A stretch of 64,000 bases of DNA from Gammaproteobacteria bacterium (GTDB lineage: Bacteria > Pseudomonadota > Gammaproteobacteria > Ga0077536): positions 2,940,553-3,004,552 of the forward strand of contig OZ257136.1 of assembly GCA_965278995.1 (NCBI GenBank), given 5' to 3'. The notes beneath the pieces are model-generated. The model worked only from the letters and a program-made list of their open reading frames with translations. It ran no database searches and was not told the origin of the DNA. Of the stretch, positions 22,874 through 43,500 are shown piece by piece (positions within the stretch are counted from its first letter, which is position 1; each line of letters starts with the position of its first letter). The translations under genes and the position numbers were made by a program.

Positions 22874-23917
22874 TTAATCGGTCGCGAATCCGCTGAAACG
22901 CGCTGGCAGGCGCTGGATATCAGTAATCAGATCGGGAGGCAGATCCGCTTGCCAGTCGCTGTTGGTACTGGCGAACAGCGTATCGACGAAACCGCCGAAG
23001 TGTGCCTCGATACGCGCGCATATTTCGTCATAGGTACCGATGGCGGCACATAGATGCAACAGTTCATCGGGAATCTGCGCAGCCAGTCGATCCCACGCGC
23101 CTTCCTTGGTCATGCGATTCAATTTGCGCCCGAGATCGCCGTAGCCATGCGCCTCGAGTACCGGCCAATACGCTGGCGTCGAACCGTAAAACGCAATGCG
23201 ATAGCGGACCCATTCGGCGCGCGCCTGTACGTCATCGCTGGTTCTGCCGGTCGCGATGAAGCCGCCACCGGATATTTCGAATTGATGGCGAGCGCGCCCC
23301 GAGATGGCGAAACCGCGTTCGAGCTGCGGCAATACCGTATTCGTCATGTAGTTGCGCGTGCAGAACGGATGCAGCCGAACACCGTCAGCCACTTCAGCAG
23401 CAATTTTAACCATACCCGGACCGACAGCGGCGACCGTGACCGGTGGCAGCGGCAAGCCGGACCCTGCAGGAACGAAATTCGGCGTCATCAACGTGAAGCG
23501 ATAGTGCTCACCTTCGTAACGCAAGGGATCATCAAATTTCCAGGTGCGCCAGATCGCGCGCAGCGCCTGAACATATTCCCGCATGCGTGGCGCAGGCGCG
23601 CTCCACGGCACGCTGAAGCGCTTCTCATTGTGTGCTTTGATTTGCGTGCCGAGGCCCAGCGCAAAACGTCCACCCGACGCTTCCTGCAGATCCCAGCCGA
23701 TCATTGCCGCTGACATCGGCGAACGCAGAAACGCAATGGCTATACCGGTACTGAGTTCGACGCGCTCGGTGGCAGTGGCAGCGATGGCCAGCGGCAAGAA
23801 CGGATCGTGCTGATTTTCCAGCGTTACGATACCGTCATAGCCGGATGCTTCGATGGCAGCCGCTGCGGCCCCGACGTCGCGCAGCTTGTTCTGTGGAATG
23901 GTGGCGATGATGCGCAT
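22874..23917 (-). CDS. LLM-class (luciferase-like) flavin/F420-dependent oxidoreductase
   Basis: Start at Met22 (MRIIATIPQNKLRDVGAAAAAIEASGYDGIVTLENQHDPFLPLA...). TIM-barrel LLM signature. Confidence 0.75.
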   Translation of the reverse strand: MRIIATIPQNKLRDVGAAAAAIEASGYDGIVTLENQHDPFLPLAIAATATERVELSTGIAIAFLRSPMSAAMIGWDLQEASGGRFALGLGTQIKAHNEKRFSVPWSAPAPRMREYVQALRAIWRTWKFDDPLRYEGEHYRFTLMTPNFVPAGSGLPLPPVTVAAVGPGMVKIAAEVADGVRLHPFCTRNYMTNTVLPQLERGFAISGRARHQFEISGGGFIATGRTSDDVQARAEWVRYRIAFYGSTPAYWPVLEAHGYGDLGRKLNRMTKEGAWDRLAAQIPDELLHLCAAIGTYDEICARIEAHFGGFVDTLFASTNSDWQADLPPDLITDIQRLPARFSGFATD

Positions 23918-24440
23918 GTGTGGTCCTGGTGCTCGAATGCATTGCGAGTTTGGCCATATCGTACAACGTCGAGGTCGCATGTTTGATCGACCATTAACAG
24001 GCTGTTAAACAATCTGACGCGTCGTAGGACTTGCCGAGTGTATTGCCGGTGTTGCTATAATTCGCCCCTTATTCAGTTCATCGCGGAGCGATTGCACACC
24101 CGAAAAATCCATCCAAGTACGCTCGACAATACGTTGGCAAAAAACCAGACCCGGTGGCAGATGTGCAGGGGTGCTAGACCAAGCCATACGCGATTCAACC
24201 GCTGGACCACGTTCGCTGGTCGACAGTGACTCGTGCCTGTGCGCCGTAAGGCGATGACCACATCTCCCATCTGTTCTGGCTCGACTGCAGGCCCTCGGTT
24301 TGCGGTACAGGCGCGTGCTTGCCACTCGTAAACCAACCTGCGACTTGCGGATGTCGGCCAGCAACCGGGCCATTGAGTTTCGCCGGAAACGCGACAGGCG
24401 TATGAACACGATTTATCAACGTCGTTAAGGAGATTTCGCC

Positions 24441-25082
24441 ATGGCTTTGACTCAAGTTGCCATTGATTACCTGGATTTCGATGCCGCAGTCGCGCTGGCC
24501 GAGTTGGTGGCGCCGTACGTGGACATCCTCGAAATCGGCACGCCGTGCATCAAGCACAACGGTATCGGTCTGCTGAAGGAGCTGCGCAAACGCTTCCCAA
24601 ACAATCAGATCCTGGTCGATCTGAAGACCATGGATGCCGGGGAGTACGAGCTGTCGCCGTTCTACGCCGCGGGCGCCGATATCTGCACCGTGCTCGGCAC
24701 CGCCGACATCGGCACCATCAAGGGCGCCATCAAAGCCGCGACCCTGTTCGGTAAGCGCTGCCAGGTCGATCTCATCAACGTGCCGGACAAGCTCGCACGA
24801 ACCCGCGAAGTCGCCGACCTCGGTGCGCACATCATCGGCGTGCATACCGGTCTCGATCAGCAGGCATCCGGGCAGACGCCGTTCGCGGATCTCGCCCTCA
24901 TCCGCAGTCTTGGACTCGATATCACCATCTCAGTTGCTGGGGGCATCAAGCAGGAAACCGTAAGCCGTGCACTCGAGGCCGGCGCCGGCATCATCGTGGC
25001 AGGGGCAGCCATATATGCGGCGACGGATCCGGCCAACGCCGCTGAAGCGATCAGCAGTGCCGCACGCGATTATGTGCACTGA
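24441..25082 (+). CDS. hxlA: 3-hexulose-6-phosphate synthase
   Basis: AAGGAG Shine-Dalgarno. Sequence MALTQVAIDYLDFDAAVALA...ILEIGTPCIKHNGIGLL...LVDLKTMDAGEYE is typical of HPS (OMPDC superfamily). Confidence 0.85.
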   Translation: MALTQVAIDYLDFDAAVALAELVAPYVDILEIGTPCIKHNGIGLLKELRKRFPNNQILVDLKTMDAGEYELSPFYAAGADICTVLGTADIGTIKGAIKAATLFGKRCQVDLINVPDKLARTREVADLGAHIIGVHTGLDQQASGQTPFADLALIRSLGLDITISVAGGIKQETVSRALEAGAGIIVAGAAIYAATDPANAAEAISSAARDYVH

Positions 25083-25091
25083 TTCACTGCG

Positions 25092-25625
25092 ATGTCCTAT
25101 CGCGAGATCCTGAACAGCATCGAGTCCGTCCTCGCACACGCCGACGAACAGAACGTGCATCGCCTGGTGTCGACCGTCGACTCCGCGCCGCGTCTGTTCA
25201 TCGGCGGCGCCGGCCGCTCGGCGCTGGCTGCGCGCTTCTTCGCCATGCGCCTGATGCATTGCGGTTACACCGTGTACCTCGTCGGCGACGTCGTGACGCC
25301 GGCGCTCGCAGCCGATGATGTCCTGATCGTCCTGTCGGGCTCTGGCGCGACTGAATCATTGCTGACAATTGCGCGCAAGGCGCGTGCTGCCGGAGCGGGC
25401 GTCGTGCTGATCACGAGCCAGATCGAGTCGCCGCTGGCTGGTATCGCGAGTGACCTCATGTTGCTGGGAGCCGACGGCAGCGCGAGCTCGCGGCCTGGGA
25501 TGCCGATGGGCACCGTGTTCGAATTGTCCGCGCTGATTTTTCTCGAGGCGGCAATATTCCAGATAATCAACACTAAAGCGTTGACGGAGGACATGCTGCG
25601 CGCCCGTCACGCCAATCTCGAGTGA
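25092..25625 (+). CDS. hxlB: 6-phospho-3-hexuloisomerase (SIS domain)
   Basis: SIS fold (FIGGAGRSALAARFFAMRLMHCGYTVYLVGD...VLSGSGATES). Lies immediately after hxlA. Confidence 0.8.
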   Translation: MSYREILNSIESVLAHADEQNVHRLVSTVDSAPRLFIGGAGRSALAARFFAMRLMHCGYTVYLVGDVVTPALAADDVLIVLSGSGATESLLTIARKARAAGAGVVLITSQIESPLAGIASDLMLLGADGSASSRPGMPMGTVFELSALIFLEAAIFQIINTKALTEDMLRARHANLE

Positions 25626-25739
25626 GCCCGTCGGTTGCCGCAACGCAATAGAAAAGTCTTGCGCTGAAAGCATCGTGGAGTGGACTTCCCTGTCGAGCCT
25701 GTGGCTACAATGACGGTTACCCGATAGGAGGCTGAAAGC

Positions 25740-26579
25740 GTGAGCTATATAGATGCCATCGATAAAGTCGACGTGCCCAAACCGGCGCGTTATTACACGC
25801 CACCCGAATTCGAGACTGTCTTCGGCCTGCCGATAGCCTATCGCCGCCATGGCCCGAAGATGAGCAACGGCGAAGCCGTGGTGCTACTGCATGGCGCCGG
25901 TTTCACCCGCATGTGGATCCCGCTCTATCAGATGCTCGCCGAGCGGTGCGATTTCATCACGCCTGAGCAGCCTGGTTTCGGCGAAACGCCCATGCCGAAA
26001 TGGTTCCGGAATTTTGATGACCTGACCATCCTTTATGATCAGCTGTTCGACCAGCTGGGACTGGACCGTATTCACCTGATCGGTTTCTCGATGGGTGGTT
26101 GGGCCGCTGCCGAGTTCGCCTCGTTCTATCCCCGCCGGTTGAAGTCGTTGTCGTTGATTACCCCGGTCGGCTTGCGCCTTCTCGACAATCCAGGCGTCGA
26201 TATTTTCCAGCTCACCCCGCCGGAACTCATGGATCGCCTGTTCAAAGACAAGGGCGTGATGATGGAATTCCTGCCGGATCCAGAAAACTTCGATGAAGGT
26301 ATTCATCTCTATTCGGAATTCTCTGCGGCCGCCCGATTGATGTGGGCACCACGCTACAACCTCGCGCTGGAACGCCGACTGCAACGACTCAGCTGCCCGA
26401 CACTTGTCGTCGGCGGCGAAGAAGACCGGCTGGTTCCGAACGAAATGTCGGACCGCTACGCTGAGGTGTTACCGAACTGCCGACTTGTGCGCATTCCCGG
26501 TACCGGGCACGAACCATGCCTCGAACGCCCGCGCGAACTCGCCGACACGCTGCTCGGCTTCATCCAGGAGGCCAAGTGA
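25740..26579 (+). CDS. alpha/beta-hydrolase fold protein
   Basis: GTG start with AGGAGG 9 nt upstream. Nucleophile elbow GFSMGG, HG oxyanion motif (LLHGAG). Stop overlaps the downstream LLM start. Confidence 0.7.
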   Translation: MSYIDAIDKVDVPKPARYYTPPEFETVFGLPIAYRRHGPKMSNGEAVVLLHGAGFTRMWIPLYQMLAERCDFITPEQPGFGETPMPKWFRNFDDLTILYDQLFDQLGLDRIHLIGFSMGGWAAAEFASFYPRRLKSLSLITPVGLRLLDNPGVDIFQLTPPELMDRLFKDKGVMMEFLPDPENFDEGIHLYSEFSAAARLMWAPRYNLALERRLQRLSCPTLVVGGEEDRLVPNEMSDRYAEVLPNCRLVRIPGTGHEPCLERPRELADTLLGFIQEAK

Positions 26580-27949
26580 TGAACAAATTGCGTTTTTATT
26601 TCTTTCATCTGATGCCGTATCCGTTCATACCGCCGGCGGCGGAATTCGAATCGAGCTGGGTGTCGCTGTCGAACAAATATTACGATCCGCAGCGCGGTCG
26701 CATTCTTTACCAGGAATACATCGATCAGCTGGTGGCGGCCGAGCGCTATGGCTTCGACGGGGTTGGCGTCAACGAACACCATGCCAATTTCTACGGGACC
26801 ATGCCGTCGCCGAATATCATTGCAGCGATGCTGGTGCAACGCACCTCGCAGATCCCGATAGGCGTGATTGGCAATGCTATCCCACTGCATGGCAATCCGC
26901 TGCGCGTGGCCGAGGAAATTGCCATGCTCGATGTCATTTCGGGCGGACGCATCATTTCCGGATTCGTCCGTGGTATCGGCTGCGAATATTTCAACAATGG
27001 CGTGGTGCCGGGTGATTCCGTTGCGCGTTTTGACGAAGCACACGATCTTATCGTCAAGGCCTGGACTGATGACGGCCCGTTCACCTGGCAAGGCGAACAT
27101 TTCTACATTCCAAATGTGAATCCGATACCGCGCCCGATACAGGATCCGCATCCGCCGATCTGGATCCCGGGCCAGGGGTCGCTCGAAACCCTGCAGTTCG
27201 TTGCACGGCATCATTACACCTACATGATGGTGTTCGCGCCGCTGTGGTTCACCAAAATGGCCTTCAACGGACTTCGCGAGGAGTGCCGGCGCCTTGGTTA
27301 CGAAGCGCCGAAAAGCATGTTCAATGCCTGCGTGCCGACCTATGTTGCCGAAACGGATGAACAGGCGCATCGCGAAGCGAAAGCGCATCTCTCCTGGATC
27401 TTTAATACCGGCCTCAAGATTCCCGATCAGTTGTTCTTCCCGCCTGGCTACATGAGCACGAAGTCGTTTCGCAACTTCGTCGGTTCGCTCAAAGCCGGCA
27501 AGGTCAAACCGCAGCAGCAGCTTACCTATGACGAGTTGATCAAGGACCGCTACATCATTGTCGGCTCACCCGAGACCGTGAAAAATCAGCTCGGCGAATA
27601 CTGCGACGAAGTCGGCGCGGGCGGCATTCTTGCCGTCGGATCGTCCTACGGCCCGATGCCGAACTGGATGGTCACCAAGAACATGCAGATCTTCGCCGAG
27701 GAGGTCATGCCGGAATTCCGCGAGGCTGACGGCAAACCAGACTATCTGCGCCAGGAGCCGATGGCACCACGCACGCGTTCAGAGCTGGCGGCACAGAAAG
27801 GCCGGCCGCCGGAACCGGCGCGATCGCGCGTAACCGGGACCGAGCAACTGATTGACCACCGCGTCGCGCATCTCCCAGAAGTGATCGATACCAGCATGCG
27901 TGGGCACGCTTGGAACCAGGAAGAAGAACGACCGGCCTCAGCCGGTTGA
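26579..27949 (+). CDS. LLM-class flavin-dependent oxidoreductase
   Basis: Start at Met22 of ORF 26516..27949 (MNKLRFYFFHLMPYPF...GFDGVGVNEHHANFYG). Translationally coupled to the hydrolase gene. Confidence 0.75.
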   Translation: MNKLRFYFFHLMPYPFIPPAAEFESSWVSLSNKYYDPQRGRILYQEYIDQLVAAERYGFDGVGVNEHHANFYGTMPSPNIIAAMLVQRTSQIPIGVIGNAIPLHGNPLRVAEEIAMLDVISGGRIISGFVRGIGCEYFNNGVVPGDSVARFDEAHDLIVKAWTDDGPFTWQGEHFYIPNVNPIPRPIQDPHPPIWIPGQGSLETLQFVARHHYTYMMVFAPLWFTKMAFNGLREECRRLGYEAPKSMFNACVPTYVAETDEQAHREAKAHLSWIFNTGLKIPDQLFFPPGYMSTKSFRNFVGSLKAGKVKPQQQLTYDELIKDRYIIVGSPETVKNQLGEYCDEVGAGGILAVGSSYGPMPNWMVTKNMQIFAEEVMPEFREADGKPDYLRQEPMAPRTRSELAAQKGRPPEPARSRVTGTEQLIDHRVAHLPEVIDTSMRGHAWNQEEERPASAG

Positions 27950-28434: not shown

Positions 28435-30144
28435 ATGTCTAACCGGACAACTCCAGACTTGCGTACTTTCCACGGCACTGAAAATACGGAAGAGAGAAAC
28501 GTTACCTGCGGGATGCCGGACTGGCTGACGACGTCGGCAACGCAACTGGGGGAAGCGGATGCTACGAACGTTTGGAACACGTCCGCGGACGCGAGCTGTT
28601 CTCCGTTTGCCTCTACGACGCTGAGTGCCCAATTATCCTCAAATGTTCGCCTGCAGGATCTCGGCCTCCTTGGACGAGGCGGGTTTGGCACTGTCCGCGC
28701 AACGATGGACAGGGCACTACTACGTACGGTCGCAACAAAGATACTCGATCAGACTGAGCAACCTTTGGCGCAAGCTGCTCTCCGATTTGTCGAGGAAGCC
28801 CAGATCACAGCTCAACTCGAACATCCGAATATCGTACCGGTCCATGATATCGGAATCGACGAACACGGCAGATATTTCTTCACTATGAAAATAGTGAATG
28901 GCAAGACGCTCCAACATTACCTGTCTGAAACATCCGGCTCAGACGACCATCGAACCTTACATCACAAGCTGCAGATTCTGGTCAAGGTATGCGACGCCAT
29001 TGGATTTGCGCATAGCCAAGGCGTAGTCCACGCAGACCTCAAGCCGGACAACATCATGGTAGGAAGTTTTGGCCAGGTCTATGTGATGGACTGGGGTATC
29101 GCTCAACTCCTGGATTGCGGCCGGCCTTCGGATGGCGCTGGCCTCGGTGACTTCGATCGAGTCCGTTTAGAGAGCGATTCCGACCGAGTAATTCGCAGCA
29201 AAGGCAGGATTGTCGGAACATTACCCTATATGTCGCCCGAACAGGCATTGGGAATGACCGGCCACATCGATCAGCGCACCGACGTATTCGCGTTGGGCGG
29301 CATCTTGTACCAGATGCTCACAGGCCATCCACCCTACACCTGCAACACGACCGAAGAAATACTCGCTGCGGCGCGCGCAGGTGTGATAAACCCTCCTGCA
29401 GTTTCTGCACCGGGCAAGGTCGTTCTTCCCGGCCTGGCCCACATCGCGATGAAGGCACTGAGCGCCCATCCTGCTGAGCGCTACCAGACGGTGCCCGAAA
29501 TGCAGGAGGAAATCGAGCGATTCCTGCGTGGCTGCGATTGGTTCGATACCCGAACATACCTGCCCGGCGACATCATCATGCGGGAAGGTGACGATTCGCA
29601 CGAGGCATACATCATCACGTCTGGTTTGTGCGAAGCGTTCAAGACTGGCGCCGACACCAACGTAACGTTACGTACTATGGGTCCGGGAGATGTTTTCGGC
29701 GAGACGGGCATCTTCACCAGTCAACCACGGTCGGCAAGTGTACGGGCACTTGCACCCCTGAGCGTGCTGGTTGCGACGCGTGAGTCCTTGGAGAAAGAAC
29801 TCGGTTCTGGCAGTTCGTTGAGCATGTTCGTCAAAGCGCTGGGAGAGCGCTTCAGAGAACGCGATGAGCAGCTTATGCATACCTATTTGGCGACCGATCC
29901 CGTACAAATAGCATGCGCCATCTTAAAATTTCTTTGCTTCAACGGCGAAAACAGAGATAACGCGAGAGAAGGTTCGTGGAGCGTCTGCCTTGATTGCCTG
30001 ACAGCAGAATTCGGCCTGCGGGAAAACGAACTGATGCCGCTGGTAGAGCGCAGCCCGCACATCAGGGTCGATAAGGTGAGTGATACGGTATCTGTCAGCA
30101 ATGAAACTCGCTCTGCGGCTAATCAAATCATGAGGCGTGGATAG
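28435..30144 (+). CDS. Ser/Thr protein kinase fused to a C-terminal cyclic-nucleotide-binding (CNB) domain
   Basis: Gly loop LGRGGFGTV, VATK lysine, catalytic loop HADLKPDN (non-RD), DWG in place of DFG, and SPE in place of APE. C-terminal CNB carries FGETGIF and an RSASVRA phosphate-binding cassette. The true start may be downstream (Met27). Confidence 0.8.
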   Translation: MSNRTTPDLRTFHGTENTEERNVTCGMPDWLTTSATQLGEADATNVWNTSADASCSPFASTTLSAQLSSNVRLQDLGLLGRGGFGTVRATMDRALLRTVATKILDQTEQPLAQAALRFVEEAQITAQLEHPNIVPVHDIGIDEHGRYFFTMKIVNGKTLQHYLSETSGSDDHRTLHHKLQILVKVCDAIGFAHSQGVVHADLKPDNIMVGSFGQVYVMDWGIAQLLDCGRPSDGAGLGDFDRVRLESDSDRVIRSKGRIVGTLPYMSPEQALGMTGHIDQRTDVFALGGILYQMLTGHPPYTCNTTEEILAAARAGVINPPAVSAPGKVVLPGLAHIAMKALSAHPAERYQTVPEMQEEIERFLRGCDWFDTRTYLPGDIIMREGDDSHEAYIITSGLCEAFKTGADTNVTLRTMGPGDVFGETGIFTSQPRSASVRALAPLSVLVATRESLEKELGSGSSLSMFVKALGERFRERDEQLMHTYLATDPVQIACAILKFLCFNGENRDNAREGSWSVCLDCLTAEFGLRENELMPLVERSPHIRVDKVSDTVSVSNETRSAANQIMRRG

Positions 30145-30279
30145 TCACATCAGCAAACGCGTATTGGCCCCAACGAGCGATCGTCAGTCGTTACGCGCCC
30201 ACGGCAATTTGAATTGATGACCGTCGCCTTCAACTGACACACGGCGAATACCGGCCGCATTTATTCGGGAGCTGAGTAA

Positions 30280-32163
30280 ATGGCAAAGTATCATCCGCTC
30301 TTCGGAATTGTGCTCGTTTTCGCCGTTATCGGACTGACACGACTGGTGGGCGGATTCGAGCGCGCCGAGCTCGCTGCTTATGATCTGGGCATGAGTGTCC
30401 GCGCGTCGGCTGCTCCCGACGGTCGTTTTCTCCTGATCGACGAATCCGAAGACGACCTTCAGCGTTTCGGGCACCCGTTACCCGATGCGATACTTGCCAG
30501 AATCATCGAAAAACTGGCAATGCTGGGCCCCAGTGTTGTCGGCATCGACAAGTTTCGCGATATTTCCGTGCCACCTGGTGGCGATGACCTCACGGCTGCT
30601 CTCAAGGCACACGCCAACGTATTCTGGATCTATCAGTTCGGCGGACCTGGCATGCATCGTATCGAACCGCCTGCGCCGCTGCTCGACAGCGAACGTATCG
30701 GGTTCAATGACATGGTGGCAGATACCGGTGGCGTCGTTCGTCGCGGATTGCTTTACCTCGATGACGGCAGCGCACCACAGGCGTCATTCCCACTGGTATT
30801 AGCACTCGCTTACTTGAGAAAAGCAGGTATCCAGCCGGTACCCGACGCCGACGACCCGAGTGTCATGAAACTTGGTCACAGCAGTATCCGACCGTTCGCC
30901 AGCAATGACGGTAGTTACGTCTTGGCCGACGCTGCGGGCTATCAGATCTTGCTGGATTTTATGAGTGGTCCTGCACGGTTCCCCCACGTTACGCTTGGCG
31001 AACTGCTCGATGATCGCGTATCTCAGGAACTCGTACGTGATCGTATCGTCATCCTCGGGGCAAGCGCCGAAAGCCTCAAAGACTTTTTTATTACCCCATT
31101 CAGCGGACATGACGCGCGCACCATGTTCGGCAGCGAGCTTCATGCACATGCCACTTCTCAGCTGATCCGCCTGGCGCTTGGCGAACCGGCTGGCGTGACG
31201 ACGCTGCCAGACTGGGTCGACTACAGCCTCCTTGCGCTGTGCTGTCTGGCAGCCTTACCAGCCTGGCTGCGGCCAACTGCTTCTCGTCTCCTACTGCAGG
31301 TCGTAATCGGTAGCGGAGGACTGATCCTCGTCTGGTATCGGCTGGCGACCTCAACCATCTGGTTTCCGATTGTGCCAATGCTCGCCGGGTTTCTGCTGAC
31401 GACGGCGATCCTCGCCGCAATGCGTGCGATTCGCGAGGCGCGAGAGCGCGCCGCGCTGATGTCGATTTTTTCCCGCCACGTCTCTCCCGAAGTCGCTCGA
31501 GAGCTGTGGGAACGTCGAACAGAATTTCTCGATGGTTACAATCTGCGTCCGCGGTTGCTCTCTGCAACAGTGTTGTTTGCCGATATCCGTGGATACTCGA
31601 CTATCGCTGAGACGCTCGAGCCCCTGCAGACCGCACTCTGGCTTAACCAGGTCATGAGCCTGCTGGCTGAGACAATCATGCAATACAAAGGGGTGATTCG
31701 GCAGTACGCGGGTGACGCCGTAATGGCCGTGTATGGAGCACCGATTCCGAGCATTACGCCGGCCGCGCAGGCACAGGATGCTTGCAATGCCGTAATCTGC
31801 GCGCAACAAATTCGAACTCGCTTGGCCGACCTGAACAATTCCCTCCACTCGCAAGGTGCTCCGGACGCGCGCTTGCGCATCGGTATTCACACTGGCTCGA
31901 TGGTGACCTGCAGTATCGGCAGTTCCGAACGAGGTGAATATGCCGTTGTCGGTGACGCCGTCAACGTTGCGGCTCGTCTGCAGACCCTGCCACTCAATGA
32001 AACGGGTATGGATAGTGAATGTCGGATCCTGATCAGTCGGGAAACATGGAGTCTGCTTGCCGATATTGTTGATTGTGACGACGTCGGTACCTTTGAAGTA
32101 AAAGGGCGACGCGACCCGGTAGGAGTGTTTCGCGTCAGTGATCCTCAACGGCGGCTGGAATGA
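30280..32163 (+). CDS. CHASE2 sensor domain - class III adenylate/guanylate cyclase
   Basis: N-terminal TM helix, then a periplasmic CHASE2-like region. Further TM helices, then a cyclase domain (ATVLFADIRGYSTIAE...YAGDAVMAVYGAP...GIHTGSMVTCSIGS). Confidence 0.85.
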   Translation: MAKYHPLFGIVLVFAVIGLTRLVGGFERAELAAYDLGMSVRASAAPDGRFLLIDESEDDLQRFGHPLPDAILARIIEKLAMLGPSVVGIDKFRDISVPPGGDDLTAALKAHANVFWIYQFGGPGMHRIEPPAPLLDSERIGFNDMVADTGGVVRRGLLYLDDGSAPQASFPLVLALAYLRKAGIQPVPDADDPSVMKLGHSSIRPFASNDGSYVLADAAGYQILLDFMSGPARFPHVTLGELLDDRVSQELVRDRIVILGASAESLKDFFITPFSGHDARTMFGSELHAHATSQLIRLALGEPAGVTTLPDWVDYSLLALCCLAALPAWLRPTASRLLLQVVIGSGGLILVWYRLATSTIWFPIVPMLAGFLLTTAILAAMRAIREARERAALMSIFSRHVSPEVARELWERRTEFLDGYNLRPRLLSATVLFADIRGYSTIAETLEPLQTALWLNQVMSLLAETIMQYKGVIRQYAGDAVMAVYGAPIPSITPAAQAQDACNAVICAQQIRTRLADLNNSLHSQGAPDARLRIGIHTGSMVTCSIGSSERGEYAVVGDAVNVAARLQTLPLNETGMDSECRILISRETWSLLADIVDCDDVGTFEVKGRRDPVGVFRVSDPQRRLE

Positions 32164-32187
32164 TCGGAAAGCCTATAGCAATGGCTG

Positions 32188-32934
32188 CTATGGCTTCGCC
32201 ACGCGATCGTCGGTTACTTCCGGCAATCCAACCTGATTCAACAACTCGCGTCGGAAGTCGCGAAGTTCCGTGTCTTCTGCGTTTTCCTCGATCAATCGAT
32301 TCAGATACGCAATAGCGTCGTACCAGTAACCAGCTTGAGCGTAGATCCGAGGCTGCTCACGCGGATCTGCCGATGCGCTCCTGCGACGTAATGAGTCCGA
32401 CGGGGGAACATACGCGATCGTTCCGCTCGCAACGACATCTTGCGAACGCTGATTCGAATTGAGGATCAGTGCAACGGACCACTGGTACTCGACACCTTCT
32501 TTCAGCGTGACGCCATGAGTACCAAGGTCGAGCGCCTGGAAGCCGCTCGCCACAGGCTTGCCGAGGGTAAGTTCCAGCAGAGGTTCGATGCTCTGTTCGT
32601 CGAGTAAAGTCAATTCGATCTTCGCCGGAACAGGTCGATTTACATACCAGTAGACCACGGGCTGTGCCAGGGACGACAAACCGGTATCCTCGGGCACCAG
32701 CACGCGAAGGATGGTATCGCCGTCCCCGCCCCCGCGAGTGCCCCCGCCAACCCTGCGCGCAGGTGCCCCGGTCGAAGGCGGTACATACCCACCCCTTTCC
32801 GACTTTACTTCGGGCGGTGGTGTTTTGATGCTTTCGATGGCAGTTGAATGCTGTATGACGGTTATGCCCACGAGCATGGCTACCACTAACGAAAAAGCGC
32901 GTATGGAAAAATATTTCATTTCAACCACCCCCAC
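32188..32934 (-). CDS. DUF928 domain secreted protein
   Basis: Signal peptide (MKYFSIRAFSLVVAMLVGITVIQHSTA) and a Gly-rich linker; resembles the DUF928 family. Start may be Met6 (32919). Confidence 0.55.
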   Translation of the reverse strand: MGVVEMKYFSIRAFSLVVAMLVGITVIQHSTAIESIKTPPPEVKSERGGYVPPSTGAPARRVGGGTRGGGDGDTILRVLVPEDTGLSSLAQPVVYWYVNRPVPAKIELTLLDEQSIEPLLELTLGKPVASGFQALDLGTHGVTLKEGVEYQWSVALILNSNQRSQDVVASGTIAYVPPSDSLRRRSASADPREQPRIYAQAGYWYDAIAYLNRLIEENAEDTELRDFRRELLNQVGLPEVTDDRVAKP

Positions 32935-32974
32935 TCAACGCTATCGATTTTGCCGCCGCTTGCGCAGCTACCCG

Positions 32975-34318
32975 CTAATTGGCCTGCGGGCTCACCGCAT
33001 ATAATCGCCATTCACCCGGCACGCCTTTCAGCGTCTGCAGACCGCGGTCCACGAAGCGAATCTCAGAACCAGCAACAAGATCTTTTACCGTACTCGAGAC
33101 CAGCACTTCGCCCGCTCCTGCCTTGCCGACGACCCGCGCACCGATATGCACGGCGATGCCGCGAATGGCGCGGTCGGCGAGTTCGATCTCTCCGGTGTGC
33201 AAACCTACGCGGATCTCGATTCCAAGCGTATGAACGGATTCACGAATGGCACAAGCACAGCGAATCGCGCGTGCAGGTCCGTCGAAAGTAGCCAGCAGAC
33301 CGTCGCCCATGAACTCGATCTCCTGCCCTCTGTGTCTGATGAGTTCTCGCCGTACGATGTCGTGGTGAGTTTCCAGAAGTGCGCGCCAGGCATGATCGCC
33401 GAGAGCGACGGCACGCTCGGTCGAACCGACAATGTCAGTGAACAGCACCGTCGCAAGAACGCGGTCGCTATCCAGCACTGGTCGTGCGCCGGTCAGGAAC
33501 TCCTCTATCTCACCGAGCATCGGCTCCGTCGCCCCAATGTGGAATAGATGATCCGTGCCCCCAAGTTCGACGAATTTTGCACCCGGGACATGCCGCGCGA
33601 GATAGTGTCCGTGGCTGACATCAATAATCCGATTGCCGGCGCGGTGCATGACGAGTGTCGGCACTCTGATTGCTGGTAAAACGTCGCGGAGATCTTTTTC
33701 GAAATCCGATCGCACAACGGCTCGCACCATGCTCGGTGAGAGCGAGAGTCTTTCATAGCGGGCGTACCAGCGACGGAAGCGTTCATCGCGCGCGACGCTC
33801 GGCGCAAATACATCGAGGTTCACACCGGTGCCCCAACGCGATTCCACCTCGTCCAGCGAACGCATTACGTGATCCATCGAAAAATCCTCGGGATGCTCAT
33901 CGTCACCAAACTGACGCGCCGAGGAATCGACCAGGATCAGCGCAGACGTCTGCGCCGGATAGGTGGCAGCGAAGAGCATGGCCATCTGACCGCCATGCGA
34001 ATGCCCGAGCAGCGCCGCGCGGGTCGAACCCGCCGCGCCCATGACTGTGCGGACGTCGTCGCTCCACTGCTCCAGAGTCGGTAACGCTGCAAGCGGCACC
34101 GGATCGGAGACACCAGCACCGCGTTTGTCGAAACACAACAGGCGACTGAATGTCGCCAGGCGATTGAGAAAATGCGCAATCGTTGGCTCTTCCCACATGG
34201 CGTCGATATTGGTCGCCCACCACGGAATGAAGACGAGGTCCTGCGGACCCTCGCCGATCACCTGGTAGGCGACACTGCCTTCCCTGCTCCTCGCGTAATG
34301 TGTTTCAGGGTCTGCCAT
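32975..34318 (-). CDS. alpha/beta-hydrolase - class III adenylate/guanylate cyclase fusion (LipJ-like architecture)
   Basis: N-terminal hydrolase with GHSHGG nucleophile elbow. C-terminal cyclase (ATVLFTDIVGSTERA...FMGDGLLATFDGP...GLHTGEIE). Confidence 0.8.
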   Translation of the reverse strand: MADPETHYARSREGSVAYQVIGEGPQDLVFIPWWATNIDAMWEEPTIAHFLNRLATFSRLLCFDKRGAGVSDPVPLAALPTLEQWSDDVRTVMGAAGSTRAALLGHSHGGQMAMLFAATYPAQTSALILVDSSARQFGDDEHPEDFSMDHVMRSLDEVESRWGTGVNLDVFAPSVARDERFRRWYARYERLSLSPSMVRAVVRSDFEKDLRDVLPAIRVPTLVMHRAGNRIIDVSHGHYLARHVPGAKFVELGGTDHLFHIGATEPMLGEIEEFLTGARPVLDSDRVLATVLFTDIVGSTERAVALGDHAWRALLETHHDIVRRELIRHRGQEIEFMGDGLLATFDGPARAIRCACAIRESVHTLGIEIRVGLHTGEIELADRAIRGIAVHIGARVVGKAGAGEVLVSSTVKDLVAGSEIRFVDRGLQTLKGVPGEWRLYAVSPQAN

Positions 34319-34359: not shown

Positions 34360-34737
34360 TCAAGCCCGTTTTTCGAAGTAAACAACATCAGGGAGCGACT
34401 CGAAGATTCGATCGCAGGTGATCATATCCGCATTCTGATCGCGTGCCGTGGCGTAGACGATGGCGTCGGCAGTCGCGAGCTTATGTTGACGATGAAGGTC
34501 GGCGGCGAGCAAGGCAATACGAGTATCCAGCGGTACGACAATACACTTCTGGGTATACGCGATGACACGATCTGCTGCTTCGTCACCAAGCACTCGCATG
34601 ACCCACTTCGACAATTCGAGCTGGACAATAGTCGGCACCATGGTCTGGCTTTTACCTGGCATTTCCTTGCTCAGTTTCCTGCCTGACGGGCTACCGATCA
34701 GCCATTCGATCCAGGCTGACGTATCAATAACCCGCAT
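34360..34737 (-). CDS. vapC: PIN-domain toxin VapC
   Basis: MRVIDTSAWIEWL...; PIN acidic residues D5, E40 and D99-like. TGATG overlap with the upstream antitoxin gene. Confidence 0.8.
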   Translation of the reverse strand: MRVIDTSAWIEWLIGSPSGRKLSKEMPGKSQTMVPTIVQLELSKWVMRVLGDEAADRVIAYTQKCIVVPLDTRIALLAADLHRQHKLATADAIVYATARDQNADMITCDRIFESLPDVVYFEKRA

Positions 34738-34949
34738 CAGTAACGATCCTTGCGATCGCGATAGTTTCTGTTTTTAGCACCCTTCGCGATTCCAGCAAGC
34801 TCATCCAGTTCGGGCACCGGCATGACGAGCACCCCCCTGCCTTTGGGGATGAAAACAAACTCTTGACCCGCCTTCCAATCCTGTTCGTCTCGGACTGATT
34901 TGGGAATCGAAATCTGAAATTTGCTCGACAAGGTTGCTGTTGCGACCAT
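34737..34949 (-). CDS. vapB: AbrB/MazE/SpoVT-type antitoxin VapB
   Basis: 70-aa product from Met46 of ORF 34737..35084 (MVATATLSSKFQISIPKSVRDEQDWKAGQEFVFIPKGRGVLVMPV...). Has the swapped-hairpin beta-barrel signature. Confidence 0.65.
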   Translation of the reverse strand: MVATATLSSKFQISIPKSVRDEQDWKAGQEFVFIPKGRGVLVMPVPELDELAGIAKGAKNRNYRDRKDRY

Positions 34950-35109
34950 TTTCGTACCTCGAGATAATCGATAAGAATATGGTAAGAATATAACAACCGC
35001 CATGACCTCTGGCAACGAAATCAGGACTCGTTTCGGCTCTGGTGAGGCTGACCCACTTGTCCGGCGCCACCGAAGCGCGCACATTGCGCGTCAAGCAACA
35101 CGAGAAGAT

Positions 35110-38795: not shown

Positions 38796-39638
38796 TCAGC
38801 CAGGCAGATCGAACGTTTCGCTCCAGCTCAGACCTTTCGAATCGACGACTTCGGCACGCAATTGTCGCGCACCGTTTGGCTTGAAGAAAAATCGGAAGCT
38901 CGGATCCTCGCTGACCGAAAAGCCGGTTTCGGCGGTCATCAGTAAAGTTTCGCCTTCATAAATCTTGATCGTCTTGACGTAATGTTCGGGCCGGATAAGC
39001 TGCGTTTTCTGATCCTTCTGCATGCCGGTGACGTTGGGATGACTGAGCATGAACTGCCCGATCATGAGGCCGTCATCCCGGTCGTCGGCGACGGCGCGAA
39101 ACTTCATCGACCCGATACGCGCCATCGCCTTGTCGAAATCAGATGCCGCCGGCGCCGAACAGCCGCCCTGCGCCTTGACGAAATTCGTCACCAGATGATG
39201 CTCGCCGTTATTCAACACGGCGACCGCGCGGATATTGGTGTACTTATCGACGCGCACGCGCATCGCCAGATCGGCGCGGCCCAACGCCGGCGTCAGATGG
39301 AATACCCCGACCAGCGGCTGCGGATTGCTTTCGACAAACACGTAAATGGTCTCGATATGACGCGTTCCCGTCTGCGGGAACGCCGCCGTGATGGAGACTG
39401 GCGTGAATGCAGCATCCTCGGCTCGATACGGCGTCTTCATATCGATGACGGTTCGATCTTCGATGAGTTCGGCATCGGCGAAGTAATGCGGCTTGAGCAG
39501 GGTTGCCCAGATATCCAGCGGGGATTGATTGGGAGACGATTGCCCGGATTGCAATGCGTCGGCCGGCGCCTGTTCAAGCGCCGTCAGCGTCTGGGCGAAA
39601 AGCAGGAACAACCCGAATATGGCCAGGTGACCGAACAT
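38796..39638 (-). CDS. SoxY-SoxZ-like fused carrier protein (quinoprotein-dehydrogenase-associated SoxYZ-like family)
   Basis: Signal peptide. SoxY-like N-domain ends in a GGC(S) motif (KAQGGCSAP). SoxZ-like Ig-fold C-domain (IKIYEGETLLMTAETGFSVSEDPSFRFFFKPNG). Confidence 0.5.
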   Translation of the reverse strand: MFGHLAIFGLFLLFAQTLTALEQAPADALQSGQSSPNQSPLDIWATLLKPHYFADAELIEDRTVIDMKTPYRAEDAAFTPVSITAAFPQTGTRHIETIYVFVESNPQPLVGVFHLTPALGRADLAMRVRVDKYTNIRAVAVLNNGEHHLVTNFVKAQGGCSAPAASDFDKAMARIGSMKFRAVADDRDDGLMIGQFMLSHPNVTGMQKDQKTQLIRPEHYVKTIKIYEGETLLMTAETGFSVSEDPSFRFFFKPNGARQLRAEVVDSKGLSWSETFDLPG

Positions 39639-39737
39639 GGCTATCTCCCCGAGCGCAAGGTATGTCGCTTGCGGCCAATTGCGTGGATCAGAAACACGGC
39701 ATCGTGTTCAGGTTGTCGCAGCGTGATTCTAGCAGCC

Positions 39738-40703
39738 TCACGAGAAATGCTGATAACCGCCCATGACCATGGCCGGAATGGCAACGCCGCCGCTGCGGCA
39801 GTGGACCCCGCTGCCTGCCTGAATGCGACCGATGACGGTGACCTTGACGCCGATATCCGTGGTCCGCTGGCGCAGCGCAGCAATCGCCGCGGGCGGTACC
39901 GTGAAAGCGAGTTCGTAATCATCGCCGCCGGTCAATGCGTTTCGCAACGCCTGTTCACGACCACATACGGCAAGTTGCGCGGCCGACAGCGGAATGGCAT
40001 CGACATCGATCTCCGCAGCACAGCCGCTGCTGCGCGCAATATGGCCGAGATCGGCCAGCAGGCCGTCGGAGATATCGATGGCAGCATGTGCCAGTTCGCG
40101 CAAGACCAGCCCCAACGCGAGGCGAGGCTGTGGATAGTAGAATCGCTGCACCAGCCATTCGCGTGATGATTGCTCGTCGCCAGCAACCGGCGCGTCGGCG
40201 TGCACGGCGAGACCGGCACAGGCGTCGCCCAGCGTTCCGCTGACGCAGACGAGATCGCCTGATTGCGCGCCGGCTCGCGTCAGCGGATCGCCGCCGAGTT
40301 CGCCGATCAGCTGCACTGTGACCGTCAGCGGCCCGCGTGTCGTGTCGCCACCGATCAATCGCGTCGCGTCTGGCTGCAGTGCCGCCGACAGTCCACTGCT
40401 GAACGCGGCCAGCCAGTCCGCATCGGCCATCGGCACAGTAAGCGCAAGGGTTGCCCAGCGGGGCATTGAGCCCATTGCCGCGAGATCGCTCAGATTGACG
40501 GCGCCGGCGCGATAACCAATGGCATGCGGCGGCGCCGATAACGGAAAATGCACGCCAGCAACCAGCGTATCGACGACCACGACGAGACGACGCGAACCAG
40601 CACAAATCACTGCACCATCGTCGCCCTGACCGACGATGAGATCGGTGCCCTCACCTTGCAGTGGCGCGAAATAGCGCGCGATGAGTTCGAACTCATCCAT
40701 CAT
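39738..40703 (-). CDS. thiL: thiamine-monophosphate kinase
   Basis: Start at Met46 of ORF 39738..40838 (MMDEFELIARYFAPL...GDDGAV). AIR-synthase-related fold. Final gene of the nusB operon. Confidence 0.85.
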   Translation of the reverse strand: MMDEFELIARYFAPLQGEGTDLIVGQGDDGAVICAGSRRLVVVVDTLVAGVHFPLSAPPHAIGYRAGAVNLSDLAAMGSMPRWATLALTVPMADADWLAAFSSGLSAALQPDATRLIGGDTTRGPLTVTVQLIGELGGDPLTRAGAQSGDLVCVSGTLGDACAGLAVHADAPVAGDEQSSREWLVQRFYYPQPRLALGLVLRELAHAAIDISDGLLADLGHIARSSGCAAEIDVDAIPLSAAQLAVCGREQALRNALTGGDDYELAFTVPPAAIAALRQRTTDIGVKVTVIGRIQAGSGVHCRSGGVAIPAMVMGGYQHFS

Positions 40704-41185: not shown

Positions 41186-41652
41186 AGTTGGCGCAGCAGG
41201 GAAATCATTTCGATAGCCGTCATCGCCGCTTCGCCGCCTTTGTTACCGGCTTTGGTCCCGGCCCGCTCTACTGCCTGTTCGATGGTGTCGGTGGTCAATA
41301 CGCCAAAGATGACCGGCACCCCGCTATCGCTCGCCACGCTGGCAAGACCGCGTGAACAGGCCCCGGCAACGTGATCGAAGTGCGCCGTCGAGCCACGGAT
41401 CACCGCGCCAAGCGCAATGATGGCGTCATACTTGCCCGACTTTGCCAGACGGGCAGCCACCACCGGCATTTCGAATGCGCCGGGTGCACGCACGACCGTG
41501 ATGCCGTCATTGACGCCATGGCGCGCCAGCATATCGAGCGCACCGCGTTCGAGACTCTCGACGATGAAGCCGTTGAATCGTGCACTGATGATGGCAATGC
41601 TGACCTTGTCATCAAGATGATAGCGACCTTCGAGCGTGATGAGATTCTGCAT
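41182..41652 (-). CDS. ribH: 6,7-dimethyl-8-ribityllumazine synthase
   Basis: [16 protein letters not shown]...VVRAPGAFE...[14 protein letters not shown]. Confidence 0.9.
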
Positions 41653-41664
41653 GAACGATACCTG

Positions 41665-42771
41665 TCAGGTTACGTATTCGACAACTTCAAGGCCGAAGCC
41701 CGAGATTGCGTGATATTTGCGCGGATTGCTCATGACGCGCATTTTCTTCACGCCGAGATCAGCCAGGATCTGCGCGCCGAGACCAATCTGGCGCCAGTCC
41801 ATGGGGCTCGACTCGCGGCGGTTTCCAGTGCCGGGATCGCCTTCGCTATAGCGGGCAACCTCGCGCACGAGTTCGGCGTTGTTGATCTGATTGGTGAGCA
41901 CGATGACGACGCCTTCGCCGGCCTCGCTGACCCGCTTCAGCGCATCGCGGAGCGGCCACCCCGTATCTTTGCGGATACTCGCTGTCAAATCTTCGAACGG
42001 ATTGTAGATGTGCACACGGACGAGTGTCGGCCGCTCCGGGCTGATGTCGCCTTTGACCATCGCCATGTGCAGATCGCCATGAATCGCGTCCTGATAAGCA
42101 TGCAGATGAAAATCGCCAAACTCGGTCGGCAGCACCGAGTGCGCGGCGCGCTCAACCGTTTTCTCGTTTTCGATGCGATAGCGGATGAGGTCGGCGATGG
42201 TCCCGATTTTGAGATTGTGCTCACGGGCAATCACTTCGAGGTCAGGGCGGCGTGCCATGCTGCCGTCGTCTTTCAGGATCTCGACGATCACCGCAGCGGG
42301 CTCAAGGCCGGCCAGACGGCCAAAATCGCACCCTGCTTCGGTATGCCCGGCCCGCGTCAGAACACCGCCCGACTGCGCCATCAGCGGAAAAATATGGCCA
42401 GGCTGGGTGAGATCGGCAGCCACCGCCTTGGGTGCAACTGCGGCACGCACAGTGCGTGCTCTATCGGCCGCCGAGATGCCGGTGGTGACGCCTTCGGCAG
42501 CTTCGATCGAGACCGTGAAATTCGTGCGGTTGGTATAGCGCGTATCCTGCACCATCAGCGGCAGATTGAGTCGCCGGCAACGATCTTCGGTCAAGGTCAG
42601 GCAGATCAGGCCGCGACCATGCTTGGCCATGAAGTTGATGTGCTCGGCCGTGCAGTGCGCCGCAGCAATGATGAAATCACCTTCGTTCTCGCGGTCTTCA
42701 TCGTCCATGATGATGATCATGCGTCCGGCGCGAATGTCGTCGATGAGTTCCTGAGCCGAATTGAGTGCCAT
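41665..42771 (-). CDS. ribBA: bifunctional 3,4-dihydroxy-2-butanone-4-phosphate synthase / GTP cyclohydrolase II
   Basis: Start at Met18 of ORF 41665..42822. DHBP synthase motif (RENEGDFI) followed by the GTP cyclohydrolase II domain. Confidence 0.9.
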
Positions 42772-42849
42772 GATGATTCCGGTTTGCGTTCGGGAGGCGT
42801 TAGGACCGGTGATTATAAACATTTCATCCGCAGGGGGGTGCCTGTCGCG

Positions 42850-43500
42850 CTAGCGAACGAAGCCTGCAGCACCGAGCTGAGCGAGCGACAGGCCGCCGGC
42901 ACCACCGGCGTCGTGGCGTAATAGACGCTCGATATAGCGCGCGATGAGGTCGACTTCGATATTGGCGGCGGCGCCGACGGCCAGAGAGCCCAGGGTCGTT
43001 CGTTCCAGCGTGTGCGGAATCGTCAGCACTTCGAACCAGTCGTCGCCCGCGTCGTTGACCGTCAAGCTCACGCCATCGATGGTGACTGACCCTTTGAACG
43101 CCAGATAGCGCGCTAGTGCAGCCGGGACCGACAGCACCAGACGCACGTATTCACCGCGCGACTCGCGGCGCGATACCTGACCAAGACCATCCACATGGCC
43201 ACTGACGAGGTGCCCGCCCAGCCGGTCGGTAAGTCGCAGCGCTTTCTCCAGATTAACTGAATCGCCGGTGCGTTTACTGCCCAGCGTCGTGCGCGCCAAG
43301 GTCTCCGTTGAGACATCGACTTCGAAACTGCCGCGCGCCAGTGCGACCACGGTCAGGCACGGACCGGAGACCGCAATCGAATCGCCGAGTTGAACGTCGT
43401 CCAGTGCGAGCGTGCCACTGTCGATCGCAAGCCGCATTGCCTGGCCGGTGTTGTCGAGTCGCACAATACGTCCGACGGTTTCCACGATTCCGGTAAACAT
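42850..43500 (-). CDS. ribE: riboflavin synthase alpha subunit
   Basis: MFTGIVETVGRI... with duplicated lumazine-binding repeats. Confidence 0.9.
   Translation of the reverse strand: MFTGIVETVGRIVRLDNTGQAMRLAIDSGTLALDDVQLGDSIAVSGPCLTVVALARGSFEVDVSTETLARTTLGSKRTGDSVNLEKALRLTDRLGGHLVSGHVDGLGQVSRRESRGEYVRLVLSVPAALARYLAFKGSVTIDGVSLTVNDAGDDWFEVLTIPHTLERTTLGSLAVGAAANIEVDLIARYIERLLRHDAGGAGGLSLAQLGAAGFVR

Follow-up and report, generated by a model that had tools for sequence, protein, structure and literature searches.

Do neighbouring genes whose products make and bind cyclic nucleotides form one signalling circuit, or have they come to lie side by side on a genomic island? This question is raised by four adjacent genes at positions 28,435 to 34,318 of a 64,000-nucleotide stretch of DNA (the window) from a Gammaproteobacteria bacterium (contig OZ257136.1). 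An earlier note on this DNA had joined all four into a self-contained circuit, running from an extracytoplasmic signal through synthesis of a cyclic nucleoside monophosphate (cNMP) to a cNMP-gated kinase. Our analysis points to a smaller arrangement of three genes, in which a membrane-bound CHASE2-cyclase and an exported DUF928 protein would carry out the sensing, and a protein kinase with a cyclic nucleotide-binding (CNB) domain would act as the local output. Under this reading, to which we assign a probability of roughly 0.55, the locus would be an acquired and trimmed copy of a widespread envelope-sensing module. The four genes are:

28435-30144, plus strand: Ser/Thr kinase-CNB gene (569 aa; Pkinase and cNMP_binding)
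30280-32163, plus strand: CHASE2-cyclase gene (627 aa; CHASE2 and Guanylate_cyc)
32188-32934, minus strand: DUF928 gene (248 aa; exported)
32975-34318, minus strand: LipJ-like hydrolase-cyclase gene (447 aa; Abhydrolase_1 and Guanylate_cyc)

All four open reading frames (ORFs) lie where the earlier note had placed them, with intergenic gaps of 135 nt (136 in that note) between the kinase and CHASE2-cyclase genes and 40 nt between the LipJ-like and DUF928 genes. The CHASE2-cyclase and DUF928 genes face each other, and 24 nt separate their stop codons. Hidden Markov model (HMM) searches also recovered every domain that had been attributed to them (Pkinase, cNMP_binding, CHASE2, Guanylate_cyc, DUF928 and Abhydrolase), all well over the Pfam gathering thresholds. 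Three of the four genes carry domains for cNMP synthesis or binding and the fourth encodes a conserved partner, a concentration that we judge to be beyond chance for this locus, genome-wide counts of cyclase and CNB genes lying outside the comparison.

CHASE2-cyclase and DUF928 as a probable sensor pair

Relatives of the DUF928 protein were sought in 185,579 species-representative genomes, which yielded 367; of these, the top 80 loci, at 35-51% identity and drawn from many phyla, were analysed using probes and HMMs. A CHASE2-cyclase gene was located directly upstream of DUF928 on the same strand in 53 of these 80 loci and was adjacent in another orientation in 6 more (total adjacency ~59/80). 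An exported TPR-CHAT protease gene took the directly upstream position instead in 10/80 loci, and just 3 loci with adequate flanks had neither gene beside DUF928. Independent look-ups of DUF928 neighbourhoods returned the same pattern. On a Nostoc plasmid, a CHASE2 protein without a cyclase domain is followed by DUF928, which indicates that DUF928 tracks the CHASE2 sensor and not the output domain. This conserved adjacency strongly supports a CHASE2 sensor that works together with DUF928, as the earlier note had suggested. The operon logic that the note had seen on the minus strand, pairing DUF928 with the LipJ-like gene, does not hold up, as the conserved partner of DUF928 is the convergent CHASE2-cyclase.

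Both genes usually belong to a larger cluster, in the order TPS-domain exoprotein (TpsA, 900-1400 aa), ShlB/POTRA_2 transporter (TpsB), TPR-CHAT, CHASE2-cyclase and DUF928. Across the 80 loci, with many contigs being short, CHAT was counted in 52, ShlB in ~46 and TPS in ~43; full clusters are exemplified by L014:918-10588, L063:539-10627 and L078:666-10606 (among loci L010-L089). Hosts include Beta-, Gamma- and Deltaproteobacteria, Nitrospirota, Verrucomicrobiota, Rokubacteria/Methylomirabilota, Azospirillum and others. Two-partner secretion by its nature places a TpsA/TpsB pair outside the cytoplasm. A signal-like N-terminal segment is present in 29 of 39 CHAT proteins, so the protease is predicted to be extracytoplasmic, as are the CHASE2 sensor domain and DUF928. 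Through this cluster, second-messenger synthesis is connected with two-partner secretion and with a caspase-like protease. No description of this five-gene cluster, or of a function for DUF928, was found in the searchable literature, which leaves out most subscription journals, and the negative result therefore carries little weight. At some loci, two or three tandem DUF928 paralogues are found downstream of CHAT (L080:9108-11656, L083:6435-8866, L084:5100-6832 and L086:1084-2958).

The window shares the adjacency of this cluster and departs from its same-strand, cyclase-upstream order. Its tail-to-tail layout is rare, being found elsewhere only at L058 and at L173/L174. The latter holds the closest DUF928 relative (57% identity), with the order CHAT, DUF928 and a convergent CHASE2-cyclase, which matches the window cyclase at the C-terminus with 60% identity. 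The CHAT slot of these relatives is filled in the window by the LipJ-like gene.

The window cyclase aligns over its full length with DUF928-linked CHASE2-cyclases (38-44% identity) and reaches 712 bits with an HMM derived from those enzymes. Pfam matches to CHASE2 (165.5 bits, residues 13-325) and Guanylate_cyc (70 bits), together with hydropathy, give the topology of a CHASE2 transmembrane (TM) receptor, with TM1 at residues 4-27, a periplasmic CHASE2 domain at ~13-325, a TM bundle at 333-384 and a cytoplasmic cyclase domain at ~429-612. The cyclase domain aligned best to Pseudomonas aeruginosa CyaB (3R5G). The CyaB-aligned columns hold the two metal-binding Asp residues of class III cyclases as well as their transition-state Asn and Arg, and the enzyme looks active on this basis. 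Its nucleotide-specifying pair is Q/A, as compared with K/T in CyaB and E/G in the guanylate cyclase Cya2, and corresponds neither to the adenylate cyclase pair (Lys plus Asp/Thr) nor to the guanylate cyclase pair (Glu plus Cys/Gly/Ser). Because of this pair, the product is not predictable. The DUF928-linked CHASE2-cyclases keep their catalytic residues and vary at the first specificity position, with Asp in 28/59, Lys in 17/59, Gln in 6 and Ser in 4. Since Lys is found in just 17/59, many of these enzymes may not make cyclic AMP (cAMP).

The DUF928 protein is a clear member of its family (PF06051, 117.7 bits against a cutoff of 26), and consists of a signal peptide, a disordered motif, a beta-sandwich (residues 76-175) and a four-helix TPR-like domain (180-234). 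A hydropathy scan placed a signal-like hydrophobic segment at residues 8-29, in agreement with the signal peptide that the earlier note had given this protein. The family motif that follows the signal peptide, Y-x-PP-x-RGxP-x-x-RVGGGTRG, spans residues 50-68 in the window protein (32731-32787, minus strand) and reads Y50-x-PP-x-x-G-x-P-x-x-R61-VGGGTR67-G, with Thr replacing the first Arg and the invariant Y50, P53, G56, R61, G63, G64 and R67 all kept. In the AlphaFold model this motif is flexible, and residues 75-240 have a predicted local distance difference test score (pLDDT) of >90. The Arg-rich motif beside an exported caspase-like CHAT protease suggests proteolytic processing of DUF928, and we speculate that in full clusters it may be the recognition or cleavage site of that protease.

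The CNB-domain kinase as a proposed local output

The kinase-CNB protein is predicted to be cytoplasmic and soluble (no TM segment in a hydropathy scan). A disordered region (residues 1-66) is followed by the kinase domain (~70-365), the CNB domain (370-456), a long helix (461-503) and an acidic winged-helix-like unit (505-568), with Pfam matches to Pkinase (125 bits, residues 76-316) and cNMP_binding (71.9 bits, residues 373-455). The parts behind the kinase domain lie at:

29542-29802, plus strand: CNB domain with an intact phosphate-binding cassette (FGETGIFTSQPRSASVRA)
29803-30141, plus strand: C-terminal tail, a CRP-type C-helix and winged-helix-like unit

In a family alignment, the catalytic residues of the kinase are kept (G-loop, K102, D201, N206 and D219), D219 sitting in a DWG motif throughout the family. 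HAD replaces HRD in the window kinase, a substitution unique among the aligned homologues, which makes it a non-RD kinase. The cassette, described as intact in the earlier note, retains G422, E423, R432 and A434, and its residues are invariant across 60 homologues. With catalytic residues and cassette in one polypeptide, the protein has the sequence features of a cNMP-dependent kinase. The kinase domain looks catalytically competent and the pocket looks able to bind its ligand, while gating itself is predicted. The NCBI annotation of this gene (P0001, 479 aa) begins at M91 and so drops window positions 28435-28704, including the Gly-rich ATP-binding loop GRGGFG (residues 80-85), and the call in the European Nucleotide Archive (ENA) is 561 aa long. 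The longer ORF is the functional one.

In the AlphaFold2 model of the kinase (pLDDT 82.6), the tail forms a helix (residues 461-503) and then a beta-beta-alpha-alpha-beta-beta arrangement, a topology that matches the C-helix and winged helix of CRP. Profile comparison of the CNB domain with CRP gave a probability of 99.4% and ran collinearly into the tail. Compared with CRP by hhalign, the tail alone was not significant (probability 0.4%), and with the CNB domain included the match was collinear through the helix-turn-helix. The tail is acidic (isoelectric point 5.3 vs 9.5 for the CRP DNA-binding domain) and for this reason probably does not bind DNA. We describe the protein as a kinase of the Hanks type joined to a sensor module that derives from CRP and probably no longer binds DNA. 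An additional role as a DNA-binding regulator was considered and rejected, given the acidity of the tail, its non-significant hhalign result and its lack of a Pfam match. A search of 1.84 billion proteins with the tail returned 12 representatives at E<=1e-3, two of which are CRP-sized proteins with a CNB domain and tail and no kinase domain; a search of plasmids with CNB domain plus tail returned generic CNB proteins only.

Near the CHASE2-cyclase/DUF928 pair (within ~4.5 kb), 20 CNB-domain ORFs were found in 14 of the 80 DUF928 loci, nine of them no more than 250 nt away, as compared with 0 in 767 kb of unrelated metagenome loci searched with the same probe. They comprise CRP-family regulators, stand-alone CNB proteins and CNB fusions, the fusion partners being glutaminase-STAS, MMPL, rhodanese, Na/H exchanger, sulfate symporter, sigma-54 activators, patatin and metallo-beta-lactamase. 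Local second-messenger circuits classically show this signature, in which the sensor-cyclase stays constant and the CNB effector beside it varies, and the window kinase fits this slot. That a neighbouring CNB effector reads the output of the cyclase is moderately supported.

The 120 best homologues of the kinase all combine Pkinase and cNMP_binding, at identities of up to 58%, and those with a named source are mostly from Myxococcota or deltaproteobacterial metagenome-assembled genomes. A metagenome scan with the kinase alignment produced 6 true kinase-CNB relatives among the 80 loci listed, the rest being mostly generic kinases, and the sample of kinase neighbourhoods is small (8 contexts, the window included). 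One of these contexts, L171/L172 (98-7640 in L171), encodes on one strand a FecR-TPR-TonB-type beta-barrel protein (1238 aa), a CHASE2-cyclase and, immediately downstream of the latter, the kinase-CNB protein P0003, which is 51% identical to the window kinase.

In the circuit that we propose, DUF928 would bind, or present a ligand to, the periplasmic CHASE2 domain and thereby set the activity of the cyclase, which would make a cyclic nucleotide of uncertain identity (given the Q/A pair). The kinase, with its gene 135 nt upstream, would bind the nucleotide in its CNB pocket and be switched on through the CRP-like C-helix, leading to phosphorylation of its targets; as a non-RD enzyme, the kinase may be activated independently of activation-loop phosphorylation. 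The LipJ-like enzyme would be the product of an independent gene in the CHAT slot, and at most a second, cytoplasmic source of cNMP. We infer co-regulation in the same way as the DUF928-CHASE2 contact, the nucleotide made and the activation of the kinase.

Several observations weigh against this reading. Within 10 kb of the kinase-CNB gene, six of the seven other contexts are free of cyclase, CHASE2 and DUF928 genes (L001, L002, L090, L093, L094 and L170), and no protein kinase was found in any of the 80 DUF928 loci. The CHASE2-cyclase of L171 is just 30% identical to that of the window, so that another lineage of CHASE2-cyclases was involved when the pairing with the kinase arose or was maintained, and the neighbour at L171 is the FecR-TPR-beta-barrel gene, not DUF928. 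The control DNA for the CNB counts consisted of soil metagenome contigs, whose taxa differ from those of the DUF928 loci. In the window, HMMs made from the 80 loci detected no TpsA, TpsB/ShlB or CHAT gene, so that the sensing module may be incomplete or decaying, and the genome also encodes a class I CyaA that could supply cAMP to the kinase. The link to the kinase draws on one independent recurrence and on analogy, and the window holds a reduced module. The step from cNMP to CNB effector, as drawn in the earlier note, has moderate support: CNB effectors recur near the sensor pair and a kinase homologue sits beside another CHASE2-cyclase, whereas most kinase contexts have no cyclase.

The LipJ-like gene, the acquired block and other readings

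The LipJ-like protein, predicted to be cytoplasmic and soluble, joins an alpha/beta-hydrolase domain (residues 1-280; Abhydrolase_1, 59 bits) to a class III cyclase domain (284-442; Guanylate_cyc, 37 bits). The hydrolase domain has a GHS107HG nucleophile motif and D256-H257, and D295, D339, H391 and R395 are invariant across 35 homologues, in keeping with a LipJ-type architecture. Against the NCBIfam LipJ model (NF058673, the Rv1900c equivalog) the protein scored 469.4 bits over profile positions 8-449 of 449; as this is under the 800-bit cutoff, it is a homologue within the LipJ family and not an equivalog. Rv1900c (LipJ) has the same two-domain architecture over its full length, and in both proteins His replaces the transition-state Asn. 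The cyclase domain is 56% identical to that of Rv1900c (1YBT, BLAST) and looks catalytically competent. The two differ at the specificity residues, position 1 being Glu in the window and Asn in Rv1900c, and position 2 (Asp395 in Rv1900c) falling in an alignment gap that corresponds to a two-residue deletion; moreover, the window host is proteobacterial-like, not actinobacterial.

The LipJ family is very large (>8000 homologues at E<=1e-30) and highly conserved, the top 120 being 66-81% identical, ~445 aa long and of the same architecture. The two nearest relatives with genomic context have no CHASE2, DUF928 or kinase gene nearby. Behind each of the closest LipJ-like homologues lies a small DUF2277 gene (at L175:2886-3173 and in the context of P0234), which points to a conserved LipJ-like/DUF2277 pairing that the window does not have. 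A LipJ-type hydrolase was found in 0/80 DUF928 loci. The LipJ-like gene is probably outside the conserved module, and its place in the circuit, as the earlier note had it, finds no conserved link to the other three genes. Likewise, the quartet as a whole was never seen again in the neighbourhood analysis, in which two of its pairs do recur.

Three further features bear on the history of the locus:

34360-35084, minus strand: vapBC-type toxin-antitoxin pair (Pfam: PIN 64.8 bits, MazE_antitoxin 29.3 bits)
34360-34737, minus strand: VapC (PIN) toxin, with the MazE/AbrB-type antitoxin gene upstream of it
46728-49571: class I CyaA, 12.4 kb from the block (about 13 kb in the earlier note)

The vapBC pair shares its strand with the LipJ-like gene, which it immediately precedes with a gap of 41 nt, and forms one edge of a block of low GC content at third codon positions (GC3). 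Relative to 41 other window genes (0.70 +/- 0.03), GC3 is 0.56-0.61 in the kinase, CHASE2-cyclase, DUF928 and vapBC genes (z = -3 to -4.3), with the lowest values of the region in vapBC (0.56-0.60; z = -3.3 and -4.3). The LipJ-like gene is less deviant (z = -1.7). This low GC3 supports horizontal acquisition of the block from the kinase to vapBC, and upholds the view of the earlier note that the genes were imported. No tRNA and no convincing flanking direct or inverted repeats were found at the borders of the block, Rfam gave no match in 27-36 kb, and promoter and terminator scans of the block were no more informative than scans of shuffled sequence. The same locus is also present on a metagenome contig from ENA (99.99% identity), and for the source-genome proteins no relatives were found at >=90% identity. 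GC content falls already from ~19 kb, so the acquired region may exceed the four genes. Just upstream of the block (22874-27949) are genes for two luciferase-like monooxygenases and an alpha/beta-hydrolase, and a HUMPS (OMPdecase-family)/SIS-domain gene pair. Two ORFs on the other side (38982-40166, plus strand, 394 aa; 41371-42921, plus strand, 516 aa) have host-like GC3 and no Pfam match at E<=1e-3.

The composition of the block bears on the most serious competitor of the three-gene circuit, namely that the genes are juxtaposed on a genomic island where only the CHASE2-cyclase and DUF928 cooperate, and where the kinase reads global cAMP (for instance from CyaA) or cyclic GMP from elsewhere. 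Mosaic assembly is suggested by the island context with vapBC, and the rarity of cyclases beside kinase-CNB homologues, the lack of kinases at DUF928 loci, the single occurrence of the quartet and the presence of CyaA 12 kb away all agree with it. The independent adjacency of a kinase-CNB gene and a CHASE2-cyclase gene at L171/L172 counts against it, as does the strong enrichment of CNB effectors near the sensor pair. In the window itself, the kinase and CHASE2-cyclase genes are co-oriented, 135 nt apart and equally deviant in GC3, with no terminator predicted between them by a scan that did no better than shuffled sequence. We regard juxtaposition as possible and on the unlikely side; if it is correct and the proposed wiring false, the locus amounts to an unremarkable island mosaic of signalling genes. 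It is still less probable that all four genes act together, with both cyclases feeding the kinase and with DUF928 acting with the LipJ-like enzyme as well as CHASE2. Such a circuit would make sense of the LipJ-like gene lying 40 nt upstream of DUF928 on the same strand, where related loci have CHAT or the CHASE2-cyclase, and of a cyclase domain that keeps the catalytic residues of the active Rv1900c. The history of the LipJ-like gene speaks otherwise, through its absence from the 80 DUF928 loci, the DUF2277 neighbours of its nearest relatives within a very large family, and its milder GC3 deviation, which hints at a different origin. Direct cooperation is also unlikely because the LipJ-like enzyme is cytoplasmic and DUF928 is exported, and we consider the four-gene version improbable.

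Very improbable, in our assessment, is an anti-phage defence island in which a Pycsar-like cyclase would act with a cNMP-activated kinase effector (cf. PD-T4-6) beside a toxin-antitoxin pair. Like Pycsar, the window has a class III-type cyclase with non-canonical nucleotide-specifying residues next to a CNB effector, and it adds the island-like composition and adjacent vapBC; PADLOC models matched the cyclase (PycC, 77 bits) and the kinase (PD-T4-6, 218 bits). These scores are no better than those of generic models (Guanylate_cyc 70 bits; PknB-type NCBIfam 213 bits), which is why this reading is rated low, and the similarity to Pycsar is of a general, domain-level kind. DUF928 matched no defence model, the effector is a kinase without the TM or TIR killing domain of known Pycsar effectors, and an extracytoplasmic CHASE2 sensor from an envelope cluster with secretion genes is ill-suited to sensing phage within the cell.

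Comparison with characterised systems

Returning to the three-gene circuit, the nearest characterised system is the CyaD1/CyaD2/CyaK-NsrA-Clr pathway of Sinorhizobium meliloti, where CHASE2 receptor cyclases respond to an extracytoplasmic protein-type signal with the help of the envelope accessory protein NsrA and act through the CRP-like effector Clr. The same logic is found here, from an inner-membrane CHASE2-class III cyclase and an envelope accessory protein to cNMP and a CNB effector, and several DUF928 loci carry a CRP-family regulator beside the cyclase. The wiring had been presented as lacking a textbook counterpart, but this pathway provides a precedent: CyaD1/CyaK and Clr connect a CHASE2 cyclase through cNMP to an adjacent CNB effector. 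The differences lie in the parts. The accessory protein of the window is the periplasmic DUF928, whereas NsrA is an outer-membrane beta-barrel of ~1200 aa; the effector is a Hanks kinase with a CRP-like module and not a transcription factor; and the specificity pair is Q/A. Among the Pfam-scanned genes of the window, the sole beta-barrel is a Plug plus TonB-dependent receptor (18388-20562), no search specific for NsrA having been made. The L171 locus is nearer than the window to the NsrA design, its large beta-barrel protein (beta-barrel portion 600-1200) resembling NsrA as described in publication, and it suggests by analogy an NsrA-type CHASE2 pathway that ends in a kinase. We read the window locus as a variant of the known design leading from CHASE2-cyclase to CNB effector, combining a conserved, uncharacterised sensor pair with an uncharacterised type of effector kinase; the interpretation in the earlier note is supported in part.

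A second parallel concerns the sensor. MtxA of magnetotactic bacteria (PDB 4Z29) is encoded upstream of a CHASE2/adenylate-cyclase gene, and deletion of mtxA had no phenotype. There is moderate evidence, from the predicted model, that DUF928 resembles this periplasmic Ig+TPR protein. A DUF928 profile showed no sequence similarity to MtxA among PDB sequences, placing the protein outside the MtxA family, and Foldseek against the PDB did not rank MtxA, returning generic FN3/Ig matches only; for these two reasons the link is kept as moderate evidence only. MtxA also has an extra N-terminal region of ~140 residues and apparently lacks the N-terminal motif of DUF928.

The ligands of CHASE2 have been listed as unknown ever since the domain was defined, and the Pfam description likewise names no factor that it recognises. 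If the proposed wiring is true, DUF928, as a nearly obligatory neighbour of the CHASE2 receptor, is an obvious candidate co-receptor or ligand presenter and would offer a genetic handle on CHASE2 input. A bolder extension, which we think unlikely, is that CHASE2 domains sense a dedicated periplasmic protein, DUF928, and not a small molecule. The flexible Arg/Gly-rich motif would then act as a tether or ligand, processed by CHAT downstream of the two-partner-secreted exoprotein in full clusters, and the pathway would end here in a cNMP-dependent Hanks-type kinase whose nucleotide may not be cAMP.

On the output side, the intact cassette next to a Hanks-type kinase domain recalls protein kinases A and G (PKA and PKG) and implies cNMP-gated phosphorylation, as predicted from the sequence. 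PKG has tandem CNB domains N-terminal to an AGC-type kinase, and in PKA the CNB domains are on a separate regulatory subunit. The window protein differs in having a single CNB domain C-terminal to the kinase, followed by the CRP-type C-helix and winged-helix-like unit, which sets it apart from the PKG family, and in its DWG motif and HAD (non-RD) catalytic loop. No characterised bacterial kinase-CNB enzyme was found in the searchable literature, where most subscription journals are not included, and we know of none. If the wiring is true, the window kinase would, to our knowledge, be the first bacterial cNMP-dependent Hanks-type kinase to be characterised, and the locus would provide a compact three-gene system for bacterial cNMP-gated Ser/Thr kinases. 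Proteins that combine Pkinase and cNMP_binding number in the thousands, mostly in Myxococcota.

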